A stretch of DNA of 59,218 bases, counting the filler, from Basidiobolus ranarum (Eukaryota): the NCBI GenBank assembly GCA_040143965.1. It is 10 parts of 10 records of this genome, joined end to end, with 100 filler letters (N's around TTAATTAATTAA, not from the genome) between each part and the next. Parts side by side here need not be neighbours in the genome. Positions count along the whole stretch, not along the records: positions 41,572 to 47,390 come from JASJQH010001492.1; 9 more parts are not named here. One strand, written 5' to 3'. The notes below the pieces were generated by a model. The model did not search any database. It had not been told where the DNA came from and was given only the letters and a program-made list of their open reading frames with translations. Position numbers and translations under genes: made by a program. This document shows positions 8,901-50,902 of the stretch, piece by piece; the first letter of the stretch is position 1; every line of letters begins with the position of its first letter.

Positions 8901-11795
8901 CGGAAACATATCTATTGTTGATGATATGATGCACATGGAGAAAGATAATCTAGAGAACTTCAATCAGCTGGTAGCCATCCGAGGAGATGATCTGGTGGAT
9001 TTTCGGTATGAAACATTCAGTTCCGATAGCCAACAAGAAAGCTACCCTGGTTATGATTCCTCAGTATACCTTCGCCTTGGTTCAGTTCAAATCACGTTTT
9101 TGGAAAGCGCTATCCGAGAGATTATGTCGTTTGGTAGTAAATTTGCTGAAATGCATATGCTATTCGAGTCAGCTAGACAAGCTGCTACTCAATCGGCTGC
9201 TCAGTTGCAAAACCAAGCATCTAAAATGCACTTTAATATCGCAATAAAGTCACCAGTGGTGATTTTCCCTAGAGGTGGATCGCATTCCAAGGACACATTA
9301 ATTGCTAACCTTGGCGAGATTTCTTTCGAAAATAACTTCGCTGAGAATCCTGAAGGAACAAAGGGGGCATTCTTAAGTAAACTAAACTTAGACGTCCACG
9401 AGATACGGTTGACGTCCTCGTTCTATCTAGAGGAAAATTCCCCACAAATTCTCCAGATGATTGATGATGTAGATATAACACTCAAAATGGTATACGGAGA
9501 GCATGTTAAAGGATCCAAGCGACCCGACACCGAGGTAAAACCCAATAAGTACCCAGAGAAAATAGAAACCACTTAACTAATAATCTTATTGTGTCACTCT
9601 TATAGATAGTTGGTGATATCTCGGATATCAAGATGAATTTAACTGAGCAACAGTACGTATTCTTGTTTGAGGTCTTCAACTCTGTTGCTACTGCATTTGG
9701 AGGCTCCTCCGAGGGCCCCAAAGAAGCAGCTAGACAGGATATTGCTGCAGCGCCAATAGATTCTCACGATGTTGAGAATATTCCAGTCCCAAAGGTTGAA
9801 GATGGGACATGGATTTCTCTAGATTGCATATTTTCTTTGAACACAATATACCTTGAGATCTTTGCTTCTAGCGGGAACCAAAAGAAGGAAATTTCAAAAG
9901 CAAGTCTATGTCGTTTTGCTTTAAATGAAACTTCACTGAAGTATCAGATGTTGACCGATGGATCTTCTAGTGCAGAACTTCAAATTCATTCATTGGAAGT
10001 AACAGACACTCGCCCAAACCCAGATAATAAATTCAAGGAAATTATCCCTGCCGTCTCGTACGATGATCCACAATTCATGACGTTTGTTCGTATGGAGGCA
10101 TCCGGTGATATGGATTTGACAATAACAATCGACTCACCAAAAGTTATATTGGTTTTGGACCAATTGTTTGCCATTAGGGACTTCTTCTTCGCTGCTTTCC
10201 AGCAAGAACCAACAGCTGAAGACAAGAACAATCAGCTATCACGGGAGAACAAGGCCCCTGCTCAAACACCACAAAATGGGAAACTTACCTACAATGTTAA
10301 TATCGTTGATGCAGAAATCCTTTTGTTGGGAGATGCGCACAAACTTACCTCCGAAGCTATGGTACTTTCTGCTTCACATATTGCAATTCAACAACAAGAA
10401 CAAATGGATCTAAGCGCCACTCGTATTGGCGTGTTTTTGTGTCGAATGGATAAACGCGAAAAATCCCTTCGTATTATCGACAGCTTTGACGTACATTTAA
10501 GTCACAACAGCGGAACCTCCCCTGAGGATCAAATCATGCAAACAGTCATTGATATTGATGTTCAGCCATTTATAATAAGAGTTTCTTATCGGGATATCTT
10601 GATATTCACCAATATCATTAACAAGGCTTCGGAATTGCTTTATCAAACAGGCGCTGATGATACAACCCTAGCTCAGCCCAATACCCCAAACCAGATTGAA
10701 CTGGAACCACCCAAACAGGATAGGAATGCTGATACTCCTCGGTTGAGTGATGATTCGACATCGTCTACCAAATCTCCAAAGGAACTGGTGGACAACGGAA
10801 CATCACCACGCACTCGAGAATATCTAAAAGTCAACCTGGACGAAATCCAGATTGTGTTTATCCGAGATTTTAATGACTTGCCGATTCTGGATATTCATAT
10901 AGCTAAATCTGTTATTGGTGTGGAGAATTGGTCTACCTGGATGAAAGCAAGCACCGATATCAAAATGTTTGCAAACATGTTCAACATCAAGAATTCTCAT
11001 TGGGAACCATTGATAGAGCCTTGGGATTTCGTGGTCAATCTCTCGTGTCCGTCTGAACCACCCATGACAGATATTGAGTTTATTTCCAAAACCCAATTTG
11101 AAGTGAACATTACTCATCAATTTTTGGAGACTGCCCTTAGCATGTCGGAAGTATTTGATGGGACCGAATCCTCTTTAGAAACTGCGCGGGGTGTTGCTGT
11201 TCCTTATTTGCTGAAAAATTGCACCGGACTTGACATATCTGTTTGGGCTGAACCCGACTCTGATAATGATGATAACAGCTCCTCTATATACAAGCCTAAG
11301 ATTTACCAATTGGAAAACGGGACTGAACTCCCTTGGAGATTCCGAGACTGGATTAAATCGCGTGAAACAATAGTGTCTCAAAGAAATCGACTTGGAATCC
11401 AATTCTCGGATTTACCATGGGAATGTATTAACAACATCCCAGTAGACACTGAAGGTACACACACCTATTTACTCCGTCCTAAGATTGAAAACGTTGCGCA
11501 TAGATTGGTTTGTGAAGTGGTTTTGAAAGGTTCAACGAAAATTGTCACCTTCCGGTCCCCAATTGTCATTGAAAATCGCACCAAAGTCCCACTAGAGATG
11601 GCGATGGTTAATTATCAGGGTGAGATCGTTTCTTCTTCTCTAGTAGTAGCTCCTGGCGAAAACTATCCTGTTCATATTATATCCGGCTACGATAATGCGG
11701 TCAAGATGAAACCAGCCGCAAATGACGATTACACCTCGGGGACTTCAATGGTTCGGTTGCAAAGGAGAACTTAGGAGAGAGCGGGGAATGCGGCT
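5951..11795 (+). CDS. VPS13: VPS13 lipid-transfer protein, internal fragment (~10 introns; both ends missing)
   Basis: WTWGYIKERRDDRKAYI, NRPDSF, TRASLQFALEEHKTLDVKIDINAPIF, FNIKNSHWEPLIEPW, PYLLKNCTG, HRLVCEV...KIVTFRSPIVIENRT are typical of fungal Vps13. Confidence 0.93.
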
Positions 11796-27526: not shown

Positions 27527-29615
27527 TTATTCGTTGATACTTTCAATGAGTTGTTCCAGCTTATTTGCAACAGTCTCAACGTAAGGTGACTGCATCATTG
27601 AAAAATGGGAGCCATCAACTAACTCGGTGATATCCTTTCCTCTCATGAAATGTTCCCACCGCTGGACTACTTGGCGTGGATTTGCCTGCAATTTACTTTG
27701 CGAGCTCTGAATCTGGCACACAATCCCAGAATAATGGTCGGGCGTATACTCTCGCATTTGAGAGATCCGATTGAGAGCGTTAGTCAATAACTCTAGCGTC
27801 ACCTCATCATCTCTGGATATGCTGTTACCCAATCCAAACATATCTCTGATTATGTGGATTTCTTCGGTGAATATTTCAGTCGATTCCTGCATCTGATTCA
27901 TTAGATTGGTGATCATTCGAGTCAATGGTGCTGAATAGATCTCATAGTTCACAGGTCCAAATAGAGGATAAGAGTCGAATAGAATAACCGAGGGGACGTC
28001 GATGCCAATCTTTTGAAGCTGAACGGCCACCCCAAATGCAATATTACCTCCATAAGACCAGCCACCTATAATGAATTTTTGGGCAGCAGATGCTTTCAGT
28101 AGTGATTGGGCATAGTACTGTGTCATATCCTCCACAGTAGTAAAAGTTTGATGTTGCATAAGACCCAAGAAATCGGATGCGTATATTCCGTAAATAGGTC
28201 CGCTGTGATCCAAACATTCGATCAGAGGTTGATAGTACGAAATTCCACCCCCTATAGCATGAACCAAGACGATCGGTGTTTTTTCTCCCCCGTCACGAAG
28301 TGTGACTATCGGACTCTCATCAGTCTCGTTTTTTAAATTGAGACTTCGTTCAACTATAAGTTTGGCTAGCAAATAGATAGTGGGAGCCGTAAAGAGATTT
28401 TGTAAACTTATAGAGGCACCTAATATTTTGCGAATCTTTGAAATCAATCGAATTGAGAGCAAAGAGTGCCCACCTAAGTTGAAGAAGTTGCCATGAACAC
28501 TAACACGTTCAAGTCCAAGTACTTCCGCAAAAATCTGGCCAAGAGATTTTTCGAGGTCCGTTTCAGGTTTTACGTAATCAGCTTCCTCATCCACAAAACT
28601 CAAGCTTGGAGCCGGCAACGCTGCACGATTTATCTTACCATTAGGCATGAGTGGCAGAGTATCCAGGATGACAATGTAACTTGGAATCATAAATTTGGGT
28701 AGTACTGTACGTAGATACTCACGTAAATGCGGGACAAATTGCTTGCTAACAGCTTCATGCAATGGATTATTACCATACAATTTCCATTGCCATACATTAT
28801 AGTGTGGCTCCTTGAAGTGATAAACACTAAGTGTTTCTTGCCCAGTTTTACCAAAAATTACATCAAAGCATCCATCGTTCTGCTGACGACTCCAACTGAT
28901 ACTAACATCGTAACCTGCATTTTTTCCTATAGTATAAATATCGTCAACCTCAACACCTGAAGGTATAGTTGCCTCCAGCTGAGTTCTTATACTTGAGACT
29001 GAGAGTGCTTGAGACTCCTCCATCTCCAATAATTTAACAAGAGCCACCTCCTTAGTTAGCCTACTATTAGCGATGTTTTCAACTGCAAAATATTCTCTCT
29101 GACCACTTTCGAGTGTCTGCTTGATTTCATCTAGAGTGATCCCGGATATCTGATAGTCCACCCAATCCTCAATTACTTGACTTCCATCACGAGTGCCAAC
29201 TCGAATAACCACTTGGTAGCGGTATTGAGTCAGCTCGTTGAGACTACGACCAGTTTTGGTTAGAATCTCTACATTTCCTATCTCTGGGATTTCTTCTTTC
29301 AGTGCGAAGAAAAAGGCTGGATCAACCATCAGCTCTTTCTCACTCATCATCCGATCCAAGATGCGTTGCTCTAGTACGTCGGCTCGAAGATCACCATGGG
29401 CTTTGTGTAGCTCCATAGAGGAGTGATAATGTTTCAACAAAACAAGACTACGGATATCACCCAGGAAGATATGGCCTCCAGCTCGAAGTAACTTGACTGC
29501 CCTGACCACCACATCTTTGAGATACTCAATATTCGGGAAGTATTGAGCTACAGAGTTGCATATTATCGTGTCAAAACTTCCCTCTTCCATAGAGTCCAGC
29601 TGATCACCACTGCGT
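27527..29615 (-). CDS. Non-ribosomal peptide synthetase terminal module: N-methyltransferase - A(sub) - PCP - thioesterase (5' truncated, intronless)
   Basis: N-MT motif ICNSVAQYFP...GGHIFLGDIR, A10 motif LPLMPNGKINRAALP, PCP NFFNLGGHSLL, TE triad GWSYGG / LFDS / GSHFSMM. Confidence 0.95.
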
Positions 29616-41471: not shown

Positions 41472-41599
41472 NNNNNNNNNNNNNNNNNNNNNNNNNNNNN
41501 NNNNNNNNNNNNNNNTTAATTAATTAANNNNNNNNNNNNNNNNNNNNNNNNNNNNNNNNNNNNNNNNNNNNGGTAGATATGGTCGCCGATATGACTAAA

Positions 41600-42063
41600 A
41601 ACTGTTAGTAAATCTATGTGTGAATCAGAATTTCCAGAAATAAATGATGTTCTCTATGTTGAATTCTGAAAGCCACCAATATTCCTTTGGAATTACTTGA
41701 TATGAATCAGGCATGCGTTTTGTACTCTTCCTTTTACGAAACCAATGGAGATAACTCCAGTTGGTATGGCATTGCGAAGAGTTTATTCTTTGTTAGCAGA
41801 GACACCACTACTGATATATATTCAACTACCGAGAAATAAAAGTTGAGCCTGAAGGAATGTCACTCATCTCTCGTAAAACCTCTCACTTTCAATGATAACA
41901 CGACTTGGCTGTTGCTACTATTTCCTCGATGCAATATCCACCAATGGCTCGAAGAATCAACATTGATTAGTGATATATCAGAAGCAACAAAATCAATCGC
42001 CAAGTTAAACTTATCGGCCTAAATGAAGAAACCTCATGATAACCAACGAGAATGCCTCTCCAT
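41600..42063 (-). pseudogene. Decayed copy 0 of the unknown partner gene 'X' in the tandem array
   Basis: Homologous to 43204-43719 (VVLSLKVRGFTRDE*HSFRL, TGVISIGFVKGRV) with stops, frameshifts and a GT>AT donor. Confidence 0.55.
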
Positions 42064-42548
42064 CGATTTTTTACCTACTTACCTGCAACCACTTGAGATG
42101 TGAAAGAACACTGCCTTCACAAATTCAAAAACTCTATTGCTATAGATTATTTATTTATTTTTTAGCCTAGTAAACAATTCTCATCACTATTGTATTGGTT
42201 GATAGATTACCTTCGCATATACTAATACTCAGTAGCAATGTAAGAGTAACACTATATAGTAGCGTGTATTTTAATTTACGTAGTCAAATGTTACGACTTG
42301 AGCATAGATGGGTGAATATAATAGTCTCTGAAGTTGGATGTGCATTTTGTTGACATACGTATCTCTCATAATTTAAACTCTGTTGTTTGTATCACGAGTG
42401 AATGTTTAGTTCCCATATAGTTTATGTCAAAGATGACTGCACCTCAACTATAATAAAGTGTTGTTTGGTATATATAAGGTGTGTAGGTATTCTTGTATCA
42501 TTAGACAGCTTCACTTTACCTTTCAATAATCCAGTTTCACTATCCAGG

Positions 42549-43151
42549 ATGTATCTCAAAGTAGCCATTATCAGCGCCTTCTTGTTGGCCTCAGCCAATG
42601 CTGCCCACATCAAGTTATCCATGCCCTCTGACCACGAATTTCTAACTTCTGAGCTGACTTATCCAGCAGGAGAAGGATTCATGATTAGAGAAGGTCATGA
42701 ATTCTTCACCCCTTCTAAGTATACGAAACATGGAAAGAAAGTTGGTAAACAATGGTCAGAGATGACTCCTGAAACTAGTGACCAAGAAACCAACCTTCCA
42801 GTTACATCTGATAGCTCTGTGGCACCTGACGCGGAGAGTGCTGAAGATAATGATGTCGACTACAGTGTCGATGATGAAGGAAACACGGATTTGGATACTT
42901 CTCCCGAAGAAACTGAGTTGCGAGGAGGTCGCGGTGGTCGTGGTCGTGGAGGCCGTGGACGCGGACGTGGTGGAAGAGGTCGTGGTCGCGGGCGTTTTGG
43001 AAGAGGTCGCGGTCGTTTTGGAAGAGGTCGTGGACGCTTTGGCAGAGGCAGATTCGGTCGCTTTGGTCGTGGTAGATTCGGTAGATTTGGTCGTGGCAGA
43101 TTTGGTAGATTTGGTAGATACGGTGGATATGGATATGACTGTGGCTGTTAA
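42549..43151 (+). CDS. Secreted Gly/Arg/Phe-rich precursor, array copy 1 (200 aa; first cargo mostly deleted)
   Basis: Signal MYLKVAIISAFLLASANA, acidic linker ending TSPEETEL, 76-aa RGG/RFG tail ending YGGYGYDCGC. TATATAA at 42471. Confidence 0.88.
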   Translation: MYLKVAIISAFLLASANAAHIKLSMPSDHEFLTSELTYPAGEGFMIREGHEFFTPSKYTKHGKKVGKQWSEMTPETSDQETNLPVTSDSSVAPDAESAEDNDVDYSVDDEGNTDLDTSPEETELRGGRGGRGRGGRGRGRGGRGRGRGRFGRGRGRFGRGRGRFGRGRFGRFGRGRFGRFGRGRFGRFGRYGGYGYDCGC

Positions 43152-43203
43152 ACAAATTATACTTCAAATCTGAGGATTATGAATAGTCATTTGAAATATC
43201 CTT

Positions 43204-43719
43204 TTACCAAATAGATTCGGACATCGTGGATATGAATGGTATAATGGATACGACTATGAAAGCTGTTAGTAGATCTATGTTGTGAGTCAGATTTTCCAGA
43301 AATAAATGAACTTCTCTATGCTGCAATCTAGAGCTTATCAATATTCCATTGAAATTGCTTGATATGAATCCGGCATGCGCTTTGTGTACTCTTCCTTTTA
43401 AGTAACCGAAGGAGATAACTCCGGTGGACTCTCTACAATATGGCACAACAAAGGATTTGTTTTTTATTAGCAAAATCACCGCGGCATGTAGTAAATTGTT
43501 GATAAATAACCTGAAGGAATAGCACTCTTCTTTCGTAAAAGCGATCACTTTCTGTGATACTACAACTTCAATGTACTTGCTATTTGGGTCAACAGCATCC
43601 ACTAATGTCCCTAAAAACACGCATAAATTAATGCTATATTGGCAGCAATAACTGAGATTACAAAATTGAACTTACCAACTCAAGTGAAAAACCTCAGAAT
43701 AACAAAAGGTAAATACCAT
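43204..43719 (-). pseudogene. Unknown partner gene 'X', best-preserved copy (intron 43611-43675)
   Basis: Open exon GTLVDAVDPNSKYIEVVVSQKVIAFTKEECYSFRL...YCRESTGVISFGY... follows a canonical GTAAGT...TTTTTAG intron. The hydrophobic first exon carries a stop or frameshift. Confidence 0.55.
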
Positions 43720-44200
43720 TATTTTTTACTCTACATACTCTCAAACGCTACTTTAATCCATAGAACTCACATTACCGACACACCCTCAAACACTCACTAT
43801 TACAAAAGACCTCAATCTTAATTAATTATTCATTTCCTGACCCAGTAAACAACTCTATGGTTATTATATTGGTTGGTGAGCTACATTGGCAACTAGAACT
43901 ACCCAGTATCAATTTAAAAGTAACTCCATATAGTGTCATATATTAGGCTTTTTGTAATCATATGTTGCAATATGATTCTTTTTCTTAGCTAAATTGACAC
44001 TTTCAGTCACATACATCTTCCACTTTTTAAACTCACATCTACGCGACACGAATACATGTTCAACTTTCATATAGTTTATGCCAAAGATGACTGTGTATGA
44101 ACTATAATAAAGGTCTGTTTGGAATATATAATGTGCCGATATTCCTCAGTTTTTAGACAGCTTCGATTTTCTTCTCAACAATCCAGCAGCAATACTCAGG

Positions 44201-44935
44201 ATGTATCTCAAAGTAGCCATTATCAGCGCCTTCTTGTTGGCCTCAACCAATGCTGCACACATCAAGTTATCCATGCCCTCTGACCACGAATTTCTAACTT
44301 CCGGGATGACTTATCCCGCAGGTGAAGGTTTCATGATTAGAGAAGGTAACGAGCTCTTCCTCCCTAACTTTATGTTGGATGAGGAGATCGAAGTCACTCC
44401 GGAAGAGTCTCAGCTACGTCGTGTGAACTTGGGTAAGGCTTTATCTCGCATGTCCAAGTCCGCTCGAGGCAAGAAATGGAAAGGAAAAGGGAAAGGGAAA
44501 GGGAAATCCACCCATTCTAAGCTTGAGAAACATGGAAAGAAAGTTGGTAAACTAGGGTCAGAGATGACTTCTGAAACTGGTGACCAAGAAACCAATCCTC
44601 CAGTTACATCTGATAGCTCTGTGGCACCTGACGCGGAGAGTGCTGAAGATAATGATGTCGACTACAGTGTAGACGATGAAGGAAACACGGATTTGGATAC
44701 TTCCCCTGAAGAAACTGAGTTACAGAGAGGACGCGGTGGACGTGGAGGTCGGGGAGGACGTGGTCGTGGCGGACGTGGGCGCGGACGTGGTGGAAGAGGA
44801 CGTGGTCGTTTTGGAAGAGGCCGCGGTCGATTTGGTCGTGGCCGCTTTGGCAGAGGTAGATTCGGTAGATTTGGTCGCTTTGGTCGTGGCAGATTTGGTA
44901 GATACGGTGGATATGGATATGACTGTGTCTGTTAA
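44201..44935 (+). CDS. Secreted two-cargo cationic precursor, array copy 2 (244 aa)
   Basis: Signal peptide; DEEIEVTPEESQL|RRVNLGKALSRMSKSARGKKWKGKGKGKGK...KHGKKVGK; acidic linker TSPEETELQ|RGRGG...RFGRYGGYGYDCVC. TATATAA at 44125. Confidence 0.9.
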   Translation: MYLKVAIISAFLLASTNAAHIKLSMPSDHEFLTSGMTYPAGEGFMIREGNELFLPNFMLDEEIEVTPEESQLRRVNLGKALSRMSKSARGKKWKGKGKGKGKSTHSKLEKHGKKVGKLGSEMTSETGDQETNPPVTSDSSVAPDAESAEDNDVDYSVDDEGNTDLDTSPEETELQRGRGGRGGRGGRGRGGRGRGRGGRGRGRFGRGRGRFGRGRFGRGRFGRFGRFGRGRFGRYGGYGYDCVC

Positions 44936-44987
44936 ACAAATTGTACTTCAAATCTGAGGATTGTGAATAGTCATTTGAAATATCCTT

Positions 44988-45430
44988 TTACCAAAAAGAT
45001 TCGGTCATCGTGGATATGAATGGTATAACGGATACGACTATGAAAGCTGTTAGTAAATCTATGTTGTCAGTTGGATTTTCCAACAATAAATGAATTTCTC
45101 TATGCTGAAATCTAAAGCTCATCAATATTCCATTGGAATAACTTAATATGAGTCTGGCATGCGCTTTGTGTACTCTTTCTTTTACGTAACCGAAGATGAT
45201 AACTCCAGCTGAATCTCTACAGTATAGCGCTGCGAAGAGTTTGTTTTTTGTTGGCAAAGACCCCACGAGATGTGTTAAAATACTGCTACTAGATATTCAA
45301 CCACCGAGAAATAGAATTTGTGCCTGAAAGAATGACACGCATCTCTTGTAAAATGTCGTATTTTCGGTGACAACACAACTTGGTTATTTGTACTACTGTT
45401 ATCGATGCAATATCCACCAATGACTCAAAG
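44988..45430 (-). pseudogene. Decayed copy 2 of partner gene 'X'
   Basis: QVVLSPKIRHFTRDACHSFRH...KNKLFAALYCRDSAGVIIFGYVKERVHKAHA aligns with 43204-43620. It is frameshifted and its 5' end is deleted. Confidence 0.55.
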
Positions 45431-45451
45431 AATCAACACTGATTAGTAATG

Positions 45452-45840
45452 AGGCCTTCATCCCTAACTTGATGTTGTATAAGGAGGTTGAAGTAACCCC
45501 GGAAGAGTCTCAGCTGGGCCGTATGAAACTTACGAACATACTTTCTCAAATGATCAAGATAGCTTAAGGCACCAACACTTCGCCCACGCGAGACAGTGCT
45601 GTCTCATCCGATGTAGAGAATGATGAGAATAAAAATGTCAAAGGATGGTTAGGGTTAGGCATGAAGGAAATCCGGATTAGGATAATTTCCCAGAAGAGAC
45701 TAAGTTGCAAGGAGGACACGATGGGCGTGGTAGTAGAGGTGGATGTGGTGGAAGAGGCCGTGGTCGTGGCCGCTTTGGTAGGGGTAGATCTGGTCGCTGT
45801 GGACATGGATAGTATGGCCGATATGATTGGAAATTGTTAG
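45452..45840 (+). pseudogene. Pseudogene copy 3 of the cationic precursor (no signal peptide, internal stops)
   Basis: FIPNLMLYKEVEVTPEESQLGRMKLTNILSQMIKIA*...EGNPD*DNFPEETKLQGG...GRGRGRGRFGRGR. Confidence 0.85.
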
Positions 45841-46251
45841 TAAATCTATGTTGCGAATTAGAATTTCCAGAAATAAATGAAGTTCTCTATGTTGGGATTT
45901 GAAATTCATATATAAAGCACTTCATACTTAACCGGTATGCGCTTAACCTACTCTTCAAATAATCAAAGAGAGCCTTACAATATGCCATGATCAAGGATTT
46001 GAATGAGACAAAGATTACCGATTAATCAACTACCGAGAAATAAATGTTAAACTGACGGAATGGCATTTGTTCCTGCAAATCCCCTCACTTTCAGTGATAA
46101 CACATCTTGGGTATTGCTACTACTTCTATCAAAACTATGTATACGAATGACTGGAAGAATAAGCATTGATCAATAGCAATCAAAGAGTTCTCAAAACTGA
46201 ACTTATCAGCCTAAATGAAAAAACCTCACAATAACCGACGGAAATGCCACA
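45830..46251 (-). pseudogene. Decayed copy 3 of partner gene 'X'
   Basis: Nucleotide similarity to the other copies (TAAATCTATGTTG...TTCCAGAAATAAATGAA, ACTACCGAGAAATA, CTCACTTTCAGTGATAACAC). Confidence 0.5.
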
Positions 46252-46759
46252 CTATTGCTCTTTTAACCACCTGCCCTCAATAACAAATTTCTGAATTATG
46301 AGGCTCGCATATTCAAACACTTGCTACTAGAAAACATAACGCTGAACCAAATGATTATTTATTCATTTCCTACTCGGTAAACAACTCCGAGCATTATGGT
46401 ATTGGTTTGTGAAGCATATTGGCAATTACAAGTATTCATTAGCAACGTAAAAGTAGCATCATACTGTGTCATATATTTAACTTTGCGTAGTCATATGTTG
46501 CAGTATCCTCGGGCCTGAACAAGAAAATGCAACAGTCTTTGAAGTTGGATGCGCACTTCGCTGACATATGTATCTCCCACAATTTAAACTCTGTTGTTTG
46601 TATCATGAGTGAATGTTTAGTTCCTGTATAGTTTATGTCCAAGATGACTGTATCTCAACTATAATAAAGCGTTGTTTGGAATATATAAAATGTGCAAATA
46701 TTACTCAGTCTTTGGACAGCTTCTATCTGCTTTTCAACAATCCAATTTCACTATCCAGG

Positions 46760-47390
46760 ATGTATCTCAACGTAGTTACTATCAGCGCCTTCCTATTAGC
46801 CTCGCTAACCAATGCTGCTACTATCAAGCTAACCATACCTTCTGACCATGACTTTTTAACCTCTGAATTGGCCTATCCAGTAGGTGAAAGGTTGATAATT
46901 AGAGAAGGCAATGGTTTCTTCATCCCTAATTTTATATTGGATGAAGAAATCGAAGTCACTCCAGAAGAGTCCCAGCTGTTTCGTGTCAAATTTGGGAAGA
47001 TACTTTCTCGCGCGGTCAAGTTAGCTCGAAGCAAGATCGGGAAATTGACCCCTTCCAAAGTTGTGAAGATTGGAAAGAAAGTTGGTAAAGTTGCGTCAGA
47101 GATTATTTCTGAAACTGGTGACCAAGAAGCCAGTCCTCCAGCTACATCTGATGGCTCTGTGGCACCTGATGCGGAGAATGATGAAGATAAGGATGTCGAC
47201 TACAGTGTAGATGATGAAGGAAACACGGATTTGGATACTTCCCCAGAAGAAACTGAGTTACAAAGAGGACGTGGTGGGCGTGGAGGACGTGGAGGACGTG
47301 GTCGTGGTGGGCGTGGTGACCGTGTGCGCGGGCGCGGGCGTGGTGGAAGAGGCCGTGGTCGTGGAGGTCGTGGTCGTGGTCGTGGAGGTC
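46760..47390 (+). CDS. Secreted two-cargo cationic precursor, array copy 4 (3' end cut by contig edge)
   Basis: Signal MYLNVVTISAFLLASLTNA; VTPEESQL|FRVKFGKILSRAVKLARSKIGKLTPSKVVKIGKKVGKVAS; TSPEETELQ|RGRGG... TATATAA at 46682. Confidence 0.9.
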
Positions 47391-47490
47391 NNNNNNNNNN
47401 NNNNNNNNNNNNNNNNNNNNNNNNNNNNNNNNNNTTAATTAATTAANNNNNNNNNNNNNNNNNNNNNNNNNNNNNNNNNNNNNNNNNNNN

Positions 47491-49862
47491 ATCACATCTT
47501 CTTTAGACTCGGGCTTCGAGTGCTCCTCCACTATCACTTCTTCCATAGCAATCGCCTGTGATAGTTTTTCAGCCTTGATGATCATTCCTTTACTATCTGT
47601 ACTCTTAGCTTGTGTATTCAGCCCGTCTTCAAACAAAGATTCTAAGACCGCATAGTTAATCTTCTTGGAGACTTTCTTAGTGTTGAGCATTTGTTTCGCT
47701 GCTTCGACAACCGTTTGCGCTGGCGTGGTAGGCTTCGTTGATTTCTTTCTCCGCTAATATTGACGAAAGTGAGGTTGTTTAGTCTAAAGTATATACGAAT
47801 AGTCATGCATTGAAGATTAGCAAACCTTTCGGTGCGTCTTAGTATTTATGCCTAATTGTTCATTGAGTTCCTCTCGTTTTCGTTTGGCTAGAAATTATTA
47901 ATGAAGGATGATTAGTCTGATCCGAGATGTTAGTAACGTTCTCTCGTTAGCTTTCGTTACCTTCTAATTGCTCCAAATACTCCTTGTTATTTTCAGTCCA
48001 AACCTCCGTTTTGACTTTTACTTCATCGTCATCCAGAATTACATTACGAATCTCATCATCATCTATATCTGACCAATTCTCCACCTCTTCATCGATATCT
48101 TTCACTAACAAACCGGGTTGATTTAATATGATAATCGAGAAAGTGAACAGTAATTGTCGAATAAATACCGTTTATATCTTTAGCAAGACCTAAGAGCTGT
48201 TCACCATGAAGATATTCGTTCATCTCTGCCGCCAGGGTCTCTTCTTCATTATCCGATGAGCTCTCCTCCTTCTTCATCATACCTTCCTTAATGTCCACCT
48301 TTTGCCCGCCTACACTCATTCTCTGCTCTTGTTCATCCTCTTCTTGATCCTCTTCTGTCACGTCTTGGTGCTTCTTTCGTGCACGTTTAAATGCTGGGGG
48401 ATCACATGCCTCTTCCAACCAAAGGTTCTGAAAGTCCGAGACACTCAGATTTCCGGAGGGAGTTTCTTTGAATTCGTCCAATCTAAAGGAAGGTTAAGAA
48501 GAAAGAAAGTTTTAACCAATAGAGTTCAAACATTCCGTGCATTGAATGGCCATAGTTCCATGTTTCAATGTACCTCTTTCTGAGAGTGATTTCAGCGATT
48601 TTCACCACTTGAATAATCTCCCGTTGAGTTCTACGAAAATTATGCATTCTAGCAGCAATCAATAAGCCTGATTGAAGATGTTAACTTGTATTTCTAATTG
48701 AGCTTGTGGATTATCCTAATCATTAAAGTACTTACAGGCACCACAAATACCAGCAGGTCTACGCCCCGTTTGAATCCAATCTCGGTCCATTCTTTGAACC
48801 AGACGCATAGCATCAGCGGCGACTGCGTGAGTTTTATCTCCAAACTCAAGCATAGCAGCAAATCGCGAAATATACAAACTAGGATCGACCAGCGGTAGGT
48901 TCAAATGAAGCTCTCTAGCTAACTTCAAAAAAGTACTGCCCAGTGTAAAGACGTTGGTCTATTCCCCAGAATAGAAATTAAATGGGTCAGTAAAACGATA
49001 GAAAAGATGGGATTTAACAAAGTCTAAAAAAGCGAGAGAAAATACGAAACATATAGCAACCTGAAGTATATCAGAAAAATCAATCAACATATGACTTGTC
49101 TTTTCCATACGGCAAACTATATATAAACACGCTGCCACCACGTTCTGAGTTTTTCTTCCTTGTAGAAAGTTATTAGCGATGGCAAGGTTGAAATATCTCT
49201 GAGCGGCTTCCATAAATCTTTCGGATAGACGAAGAGCAGTAGCAATACTTTGAATTCTCTGACGACCTAGGGGAGAGAGAAAAACAGCATAAACACAAAG
49301 TTTTAGTTCGTGCTAAAAGGTTGTGTATAAAAAGAAAATTTTTCAACCCTCAGCGATCGTTTTTTCTCGAGACTCTAAAGCATTTTGTCGGCGATATGAG
49401 CCGATGGCAGCTCTTCCTAAAGTTATTTAGATATATCCCGTCAGTTTTCCAATACCTTGGTGAAGCAAGTAAAGAGCTGAACCTATTTACGAACAGTACA
49501 AGTATAAAAAAATACAAACCTTTGTCTGCCGCCACATATGAGCCCTGTAGAATGGCTGCTCCACTGGCAGATTCACCAAAAGTGACCTCAGAAACAATGG
49601 TATTCTCTTCAATAACCTACATACATAGTAATCTTCGTTAATATGACTTAACGCTGGTAATTGTTGGTTGCTGGTAACTGAAATCTCGGGTATAAAAAAA
49701 TCCAACTAAATATTACTGAAAGTACCCATTCATTCCATAAACGGGAAGGAAAAAGGGGAGTAGAATAGGAGTAATACTTACTGTACCACAGTTGGTACAC
49801 ACGGAGTTACCCTGGGTTGAATCAAACTCAATGATTGACTCTCCACATTGCCGACAAGACAT
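47491..49862 (-). CDS. BRF1: TFIIIB subunit Brf1 (multi-exon, 3' end truncated)
   Basis: Zn ribbon MSCRQCG...[83 protein letters not shown]. Confidence 0.96.
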
Positions 49863-50902
49863 TCCGAAAATAAAAACTCTATCTAATAACGTCCAGGACT
49901 CCGGTTAGTGGGGATTTATTATTGCTGGTATGTATGCTGGAAGACTTGGGTACAAACTTGGAAAAAGGCAAGGACTTGTGTTTATTTTTTTTTCCCAACA
50001 GTCAACTTGTCAAAAAAAAACCTGGTTGGCCTAATTAAAGCAAACCCATTTCCTTTTGCGGCGCAATTTTTGGTTACCCTTTTTTCTTGTTTGAATGGTA
50101 GATTTCTAATGATCTAGTATTAAGATATTAACACTTCGCCATATGCTACTGATATTAATTGTTATTCAATATTATATAGGCTTTTGTATGTGGTACAGTT
50201 CAAACCATACCTTACCAAATATCCGTGAATCATGCAGCAGGCTTGACAAGAGACTGAACATAATAAAGAGGGGGCTTTTGTGTGGTGCATCTATGTCAGC
50301 ATGTTGTGCTTGAGGGAGATGGGCCATTTCATTCGTTCGTTTTGATGGGCTTACATGGAATTCACAGAACACACCGTCTACATTTACTGACATCTAACGT
50401 TGGGATGCCCAAGCCCTGTATTAGGTAATTCGAGCATACACTCAGGAATTCTCTCGAGTATCAGTTTTTTGCGCTAATTGTTGGTGATATATGACCAATT
50501 CGATACAGGCTGGAGTAGGGTTTCAAATCTACTCAGGTCTCAACATTTGTTAGGGATAGCCTCTTGATTTTGAAATGATCTCGTAGAATGAACAATCATT
50601 GGTCTGTGGCTTGAATCATTCAGGAATTGCCAAGGGTCCTAGATTTTCCTAACACGTATAGCTGCGGAGGAGATGGGATGCTGATGTACGCAGTCTCAAG
50701 AGATTTGATAGACTTTTCAGTTGGGTGGAATTCACTTGAATTTAGTATAAAAAGTGAGGTGAATTTCTCGAGAACTCCATCAAGAAAAGGGGGGTACAGT
50801 TTCTTTAATCAAGTCTAAACACTTTCTATCGAATCGTAATAGTGTTTCTTTCACGCTTTGTTCACTTCAATATTCCCCTTCCCTCATTTTATCTCTTCCT
50901 AA

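Follow-up and report, generated by a model that had tools for sequence, protein, structure and literature searches.

At the end of a contig of Basidiobolus ranarum, a stretch of 40 codons had been read as a cecropin-style peptide, with two amphipathic helices joined by a central proline. Does this segment belong to that class, and how could it be released from the precursor that carries it? It lies in a window of 59,218 nt (the whole stretch of DNA analysed here), in which contigs measuring some 5.8 kb are strung together by Ns. The contig concerned (G000:C1492, positions 41572-47390) carries a tandem array composed of two complete copies (1 and 2), a decayed copy 3, a partial copy 4 holding the 40-codon segment and one extra 3′ flank. 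The N-linker begins at 47391, right after copy 4. Coordinates are collected in Table 1, where cargo 1 and cargo 2 designate the cationic segments that follow motif 1 and motif 2, respectively.

Table 1. Features of the precursor array, in window positions
Feature	Position	Strand	Remarks
Copy 4, precursor ORF	46760..47390	+	cargo 2 interrupted by the contig end at 47390
Copy 4, putative signal peptide (about residues 1-19)	46760..46816	+	assigned by eye from hydrophobic core and family alignment; helix 3-17 in the model
Copy 4, conserved acidic pro-segment ending in motif 1 (TPEESQL)	46916..46978	+	71% identity, 23 paralogs
Copy 4, cargo 1, first half (helix 1)	46979..47020	+	cationic amphipathic helix kept across the family
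Copy 4, cargo 1, second half	47021..47098	+	variable, Lys-rich, not hydrophobic; Pro at 47051-47053
Copy 4, acidic spacer ending in motif 2 (TSPEETEL, 47228-47260)	47099..47260	+	
Copy 4, cargo 2	47261..47390	+	Arg/Gly repeats, incomplete at the contig end
Copy 2, complete precursor	44201..44935	+	cargo 1 at 44417-44560; Arg/Gly/Phe tail with terminal CxC
Copy 1, complete ORF without motif 1 and helix 1	42549..43151	+	junction 42707/42708; second half of cargo 1 and cargo 2 retained
Copy 3, decayed	~45448..45830	+	three-frame translation: start and signal peptide missing, stop right behind helix 1 (45565-45567), frame break, further stops
3′ flank of another copy	41595..41723	+	coding part beyond the contig start

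What had been said of the sister copies was borne out. Cargo 1 of copy 2 is a diverged version in which a 24-nt insertion gives KG repeats at 44480-44506. Copy 1 has lost the first motif and helix by a clean deletion, which fuses FF in frame to TPSK, makes the copy 126 nt shorter than copy 4 and 150 nt shorter than copy 2, and shows microhomology at both ends (5/6 nt). Copies 1 and 2 end in CxC (43137-43148 and 44921-44932), where most paralogs have instead an acidic two-Cys tail. Two fragments located at contig ends (L036:1154-1333 and L019:3-230) are very near copies 2 and 4, and are probably further array members or alleles.

Charge and amphipathicity of the 40-residue segment

Translation of 46979-47098 gives 10 Lys, 3 Arg and neither Asp nor Glu, exactly the 13 basic and no acidic residues first counted. 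The resulting charge of +13 is reached by none of the 3,947 40-residue windows taken from 10 other ORFs of the window, for which the maximum is +7. Amphipathicity is real but modest for such a composition: under three choices of scale and window, the moment of the best window is attained by 262, 309 and 667 of 5,000 shuffles. Cargo residues 4-14 (net +4) have a moment of 0.70, and this 11-residue value is equalled by 184 of the 3,947 control windows. The single proline expected at the centre is present but off-centre, at position 25 of 40. When the segment is split at this proline, a split picked after viewing the sequence, the two-helix statistic is reached by 30 of 5,000 shuffles. Residues 26-40 have a net charge of +5, a mean hydrophobicity of 0.13 and a GRAVY of 0.08 (-0.06 and -1.15, respectively, for the equivalent part of copy 2). 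For copy 4, the AlphaFold model (mean pLDDT 49) is mostly disordered; it predicts one helix, residues 68-90, from the TPEE motif through helix 1, and coil of low confidence beyond residue 90. Since the modelled helix spans both elements, TPEE may be a mere helix cap.

Cecropins consist of a basic N-terminal helix, a hinge and a hydrophobic C-terminal helix (PMC11840601), with Trp2 as a key residue (PMC4496781). Like the insect cecropins (PF00272), cargo 1 has about 40 residues, no Cys, a cationic amphipathic N-terminal helix and a Gly/Pro break near 22-25; a cecropin-like Phe5 is found in copy 4 only, where 27 of 30 copies have Leu. Unlike cecropins, the family has a Lys-rich C-terminal half, no Trp2, a Pro that differs between copies, a long acidic pro-region and a downstream spacer. 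Cecropin membership fails because the second half is Lys-rich instead of hydrophobic and the hinge Pro is replaced by His in copy 2. It is further ruled out by the missing Trp2 and by hmmscan, which gave no PF00272 match for precursors or cores; the model, with its coil in place of a second helix, agrees. More generally, no Pfam match was obtained by hmmscan for precursors, cores or nine cargo-1 segments, and a PDB sequence search with the 40-mer returned no match at E 10. Scanning the genome for PF00272 and PF05298 gave nothing, but neither did the controls, and these scans carry no weight. What stands of the original prediction is thus a secreted precursor with an acidic pro-segment and a strongly cationic segment, amphipathic in its first half; the cecropin label does not. 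Cargo 1 of copy 4 may work like a cationic helical peptide, helix 1 recalling wasp mastoparans and frog temporins, but it is no cecropin.

A precursor family of Basidiobolus

A search of the B. ranarum genome (65 Mb in 13,754 contigs) with copy 4 matched 43 of 47 candidates, many of them in tandem arrays, from which about 35 gene copies are estimated. A profile built from 27 copies gave 10 matches among 1.84 billion representatives, namely copy 1 and nine Basidiobolus proteins (seven from B. ranarum, two from B. meristosporus). Three word-seeded searches, over 165, 75 and 7,371 candidates, gave 3, 2 and 8 matches, each of them from Basidiobolus or the window's copy 1. As judged by these sequence searches, the family is so far restricted to the genus Basidiobolus. 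Its paralogs in this genome are annotated publicly as hypothetical proteins of Basidiobolus ranarum, and the B. meristosporus members are ORX90058 and ORX65005. The family is absent from the titles and abstract openings of the papers listed on Basidiobolus antimicrobial, secreted or adhesive proteins and on fungal linear helical peptides, subscription papers being mostly outside the scope of this survey. Within the scope of these searches, the precursor family is an undescribed, genus-restricted one, of a general design already known.

The precursors are ordered as follows: signal peptide, acidic pro-segment ending in PEEx[QE]L, cargo 1, acidic spacer ending in PEETEL, cargo 2 made of Arg/Gly/Phe-rich repeats, and a short Cys tail. 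In a tree of 33 N-terminal regions, an old group of five, including a B. meristosporus protein, is separated from an expanded group of 28 (support 100/99); copies 2 and 4 are sisters (97/99).

Ratios of dN/dS were obtained as pooled pairwise counts, which are non-independent, from 23 of 27 aligned rows, after removal of copy 1 and of three divergent rows. They amount to 0.14 in the motif-1 segment and 0.10 in motif 2; within cargo 1, residues 1-14 give 0.34 and the remainder 0.75, and the spacer gives 0.42. Both motifs and helix 1 are under purifying selection, and the pattern is that of a conserved pro-motif and a variable cargo. Within helix 1, Lys7 and Arg11 are each found in 29 of 30 copies, Leu5 in 27 and Leu12 in 26. 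The family mean moment over cargo residues 5-15, a window picked after inspection, is 0.68, and 39 of 10,000 column permutations attain this value. For three further windows the counts are 672, 1,895 and 1,067 (the last being that of residues 25-40, taken from 27 copies), and therefore the first helix alone is a family trait. The net charge of cargo 1 over 40 residues drops to between +4 and +7 in 14 of 30 copies. Pro25 is shared by copies 4 and 1, and the family Pro lies mainly at position 17 (16/30), where copy 4 has none. What follows helix 1 shifts from Lys-rich to His/Lys-rich to Arg/Pro-rich, while the helix-1 pattern is the same in B. ranarum and B. meristosporus.

Several paralogs depart from the two-cassette order. 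P0008 (L039:3669-3986, minus strand, G000:C605) is a cargo-1-only protein of 106 aa: a stop comes directly after a 36-residue cargo 1 of net charge +11, and the same 3′ element as behind the window copies lies downstream. In its core the Pro is at position 10 and the second helix is amphipathic (18-residue moment 0.60, reached by 235 of 5,000 shuffles), and in a single-sequence AlphaFold model (pLDDT 44) two helices flank the Pro. P0008 is a better helix-hinge-helix candidate than copy 4; an ESM Atlas search with it gave no usable lead. Copy 1 and L047 (G000:C541, ~11120-11499, minus strand) lack motif 1 but have motif 2 with its cargo 2. On L047 the open genomic frame enters an Arg/Tyr-rich tail, whereas the database gene model P0012 joins a downstream segment instead. 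The cassettes can stand alone, since P0008 ends after cargo 1 and other genes carry cargo 2 only. Two tandem genes (L040:2-445 and 1311-2000, G000:C3789) join cassette 1 to KKSGG-type repeats and a 6-Cys domain, which take the place of cargo 2; for this domain no Pfam match was found. Another locus (L034, G000:C10419) holds two near-identical copies, inverted head to head and with the same frame break, which may be an assembly artefact.

Processing sites and comparable precursors

The two residues after motif 1 were compared in 32 copies: Arg-Arg occurs in 22, His-Arg in five and Arg-Ser in two, while Phe-Arg (in copy 4), Pro-Arg and Arg-His are each found in a single copy. In all 32 an Arg lies at most two residues downstream of the motif. 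At site 2, compared in 24 copies, Arg-Arg comes after the motif in 17, and Gln-Arg in copies 2 and 4. In B. meristosporus the site-2 motif is followed by Trp-Gly-Arg, which argues that PEExxL is older and firmer than the basic pair. Aromatic P2 residues make poor Kex2 sites, and with its Phe-Arg copy 4 may be poorly cut at site 1. Kex2 itself prefers Lys-Arg and Arg-Arg, some single-Arg sites being also cut (PMC6624476).

Between sites 1 and 2, KR or RR is absent in 22 of 24 copies, and this piece of 72-100 residues is net negative (-1 to -12) in all 24; therefore kexin alone would free no 40-mer. Copy 4 has no dibasic site from cargo 1 to motif 2, and with none after cargo 1 the 40-mer's C-terminus is simply the point of charge change. 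Arg11 becomes dibasic in divergent members. For cargo 1 of the two-cassette genes another cut would be required, perhaps made by secreted extracellular proteases. Proprotein-convertase P-domains were detected at four loci (seven matches) on contigs C6895 (two), C2655 and C6903 of the genome. The two loci inspected are kexin-like with a membrane anchor and carry what we take to be kexin-like catalytic motifs; most fungi have one Kex2. A genome scan for the MBTPS1 (site-1 protease) domain was empty, its control was silent as well, and it carries no weight.

Traits common to precursors with an acidic pro-segment and a cationic cargo are found here: a signal peptide, an acidic pro-segment and a cationic segment, the pro-segment being conserved and the cargo variable. 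A cargo flanked by cut sites or placed at the C-terminus is found with cargo 1 of P0008 and with cargo 2, not with cargo 1 in 22 of 24 two-cassette copies. In spider precursors, an acidic propeptide and spacers are thought to neutralise the cationic peptides, and a Glu-containing motif precedes an Arg (PMC6832493). The family shares the acidic-spacer layout of these linear cytolytic complex precursors (PQM/iPQM), and its site 2 (ETEL-R) fits the PQM wording. By the same wording site 1 (ESQL-R) differs, having no Glu at -2 to -4, and no inverted motif follows cargo 1. A general spider-type PQM rule was rejected since it fits site 2 and fails at site 1 and at the B. meristosporus sites. No homology between the family and the spider complex precursors was found.

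Bombinin precursors contain a signal peptide, an acidic spacer and two cationic peptides per precursor (PMC12999879). In this two-peptide layout the Basidiobolus family resembles the bombinin/maximin precursors of toads of the genus Bombina (PF05298), which form its nearest cluster in the ESM Atlas. Unlike them, the family has neither a Gly amidation donor nor a dibasic site after cargo 1, and its cargo 2 is an Arg/Gly repeat. Homology to bombinins, or a transfer from amphibians, was rejected: the Atlas score of 0.79 is below a level often reached by shuffled proteins, which leaves the likeness as analogy only, and hmmscan gave no PF05298 match.

Among fungal systems, candidalysin/Ece1 of Candida albicans comes from a single gene. 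It is a secreted preproprotein from which a cryptic amphipathic helix is freed by kexins at cut sites on both sides (PMC5784256). The family is like it in being a fungal secreted preproprotein with an amphipathic helix, and differs from it in that candidalysin has cut sites on both sides; the two have no sequence relation. Kex2-processed repeat proteins (KEPs) have a signal peptide and basic-pair sites, and 43 were counted in B. meristosporus (PMC7329392). Unlike KEPs, the family has two unlike cargos instead of repeated cores, and its cut sites vary; ORX90058 and ORX65005 are absent from the three supplementary files of that survey.

Possible roles of the family

We give a probability of about 0.45 to the reading that the family encodes precursors of membrane-active, probably antimicrobial, cationic peptides. 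The array would then belong to a Basidiobolus-specific multigene family of secreted prepropeptides, with gene units of one or two cassettes, each made of an acidic pro-segment ending in PEEx(Q/E)L and a cationic cargo. The acidic segments would mask the cargos in secretion, and a protease would cut at or just past PEEx(Q/E)L, most likely a kexin acting on the Arg that lies downstream by one or two residues. Cargo 1 could bind anionic membranes via its short amphipathic helix and variable Lys-rich tail, cargo 2 being a presumed Arg/Gly/aromatic polycation. Likely targets would be bacteria and other microbes in amphibian gut, dung and litter. In favour of this reading are the size of the family, the constraint on both motifs, the Arg within two residues of motif 1 in all 32 copies, the moment of cargo residues 5-15, the single-cassette genes, the L040 fusion, the kexin-like loci and the layout shared with spider and bombinin precursors. 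Release is its weakest point: in the 22 copies lacking a dibasic site behind cargo 1, this cargo would stay on a net-acidic piece, and neither the sites of copy 4 nor site 2 of B. meristosporus has the basic pair. The lower charge of cargo 1 in 14 copies, the results for the three other moment windows and the modelled helix running on from TPEE also count against it. Antimicrobial cargos are usually variable in sequence, and the conservation of helix 1 thus counts against this reading. By analogy, the masking resembles that proposed for the spider precursors (PMC6832493).

Several of these observations would also suit a secreted charge-block (polyampholyte) material, cut or uncut, that coacervates into a spore coat, a wall matrix or a sticky adhesive of secondary conidia, with helix 1 as an anchor or assembly element. 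Basidiobolus does form adhesive capilliconidia, the modelled protein is mostly disordered, and Arg/Gly/aromatic repeats occur with terminal Cys motifs. The inter-site piece is acidic in every copy that has one, the genes are many and arrayed in tandem, and the cargo of B. meristosporus is His/Lys-rich. We nevertheless find such a material rather unlikely: P0008 lacks a repeat tail, an amphipathic helix forming its C-terminus, the tail of the L040 genes is replaced by a 6-Cys domain, and the strong constraint on two short motifs fits a processing signal better than a bulk material. If the product were a spore glue or coat, it would be a new fungal charge-block material.

Helix 1 might also be a pro- or sorting element, part of a single helix starting at TPEE, and not cargo; cutting would then take place later, for instance after Arg11, or at site 2 only, and the product would be the variable tail or cargo 2. 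The near-invariant Arg11 and its dibasic form in divergent members are consistent with this, as are the helix pattern kept between the two species while the downstream part changes, the unbroken helix 68-90 in the model and the frame of copy 1, open without helix 1. No such helix follows motif 2, however, which indicates that the motif works without it, and between copies 2 and 4 helix 1 changes at 0.35 non-synonymous against 0.39 synonymous (14 codons only). We hold this assignment to be improbable. Low hydrophobicity combined with high positive charge usually favours bacterial over animal membranes, and this speaks against effectors aimed at the host, which would resemble candidalysin in attacking arthropod or vertebrate cells as polycationic, cell-penetrating or cytolytic peptides. 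Helix 1 is amphipathic, and fungal helical cytolysins released by kexin exist (PMC5784256), but the two-sided cuts needed by candidalysin are absent here. A role of this kind appears very unlikely.

The reading of the family as precursors of antimicrobial peptides has a bolder form, which we regard as tentative and rather doubtful. Basidiobolus would possess an independent, animal-style arsenal of dozens of modular linear antimicrobial peptide precursors, in which PEEx(Q/E)L, and not the basic pair, marks the starts of swappable cargos (amphipathic helix, His/Lys-rich, Arg/Pro-rich or Arg/Gly/aromatic repeat). The motif would possibly be read by one of several duplicated kexins, and the peptides would shape the bacteria of the amphibian gut. 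Described ribosomal antimicrobial peptides of fungi are mostly Cys-rich, and candidalysin is the standard kexin-released helical peptide. If true, this vertebrate-gut fungus, which infects people as well, would offer in its modular family of 35 copies a new natural source of cationic peptides, a convergence with the precursors of frogs and spiders and perhaps a novel signal for processing.

Elsewhere in the window, two minus-strand genes were recognised by eye. The next contig carries, at 47439-50000, a spliced gene resembling the TFIIIB subunit Brf1, unrelated to the array. On another contig, positions 27527-29590 correspond to the end of an NRPS-like ORF with methyltransferase-, carrier- and thioesterase-like segments.
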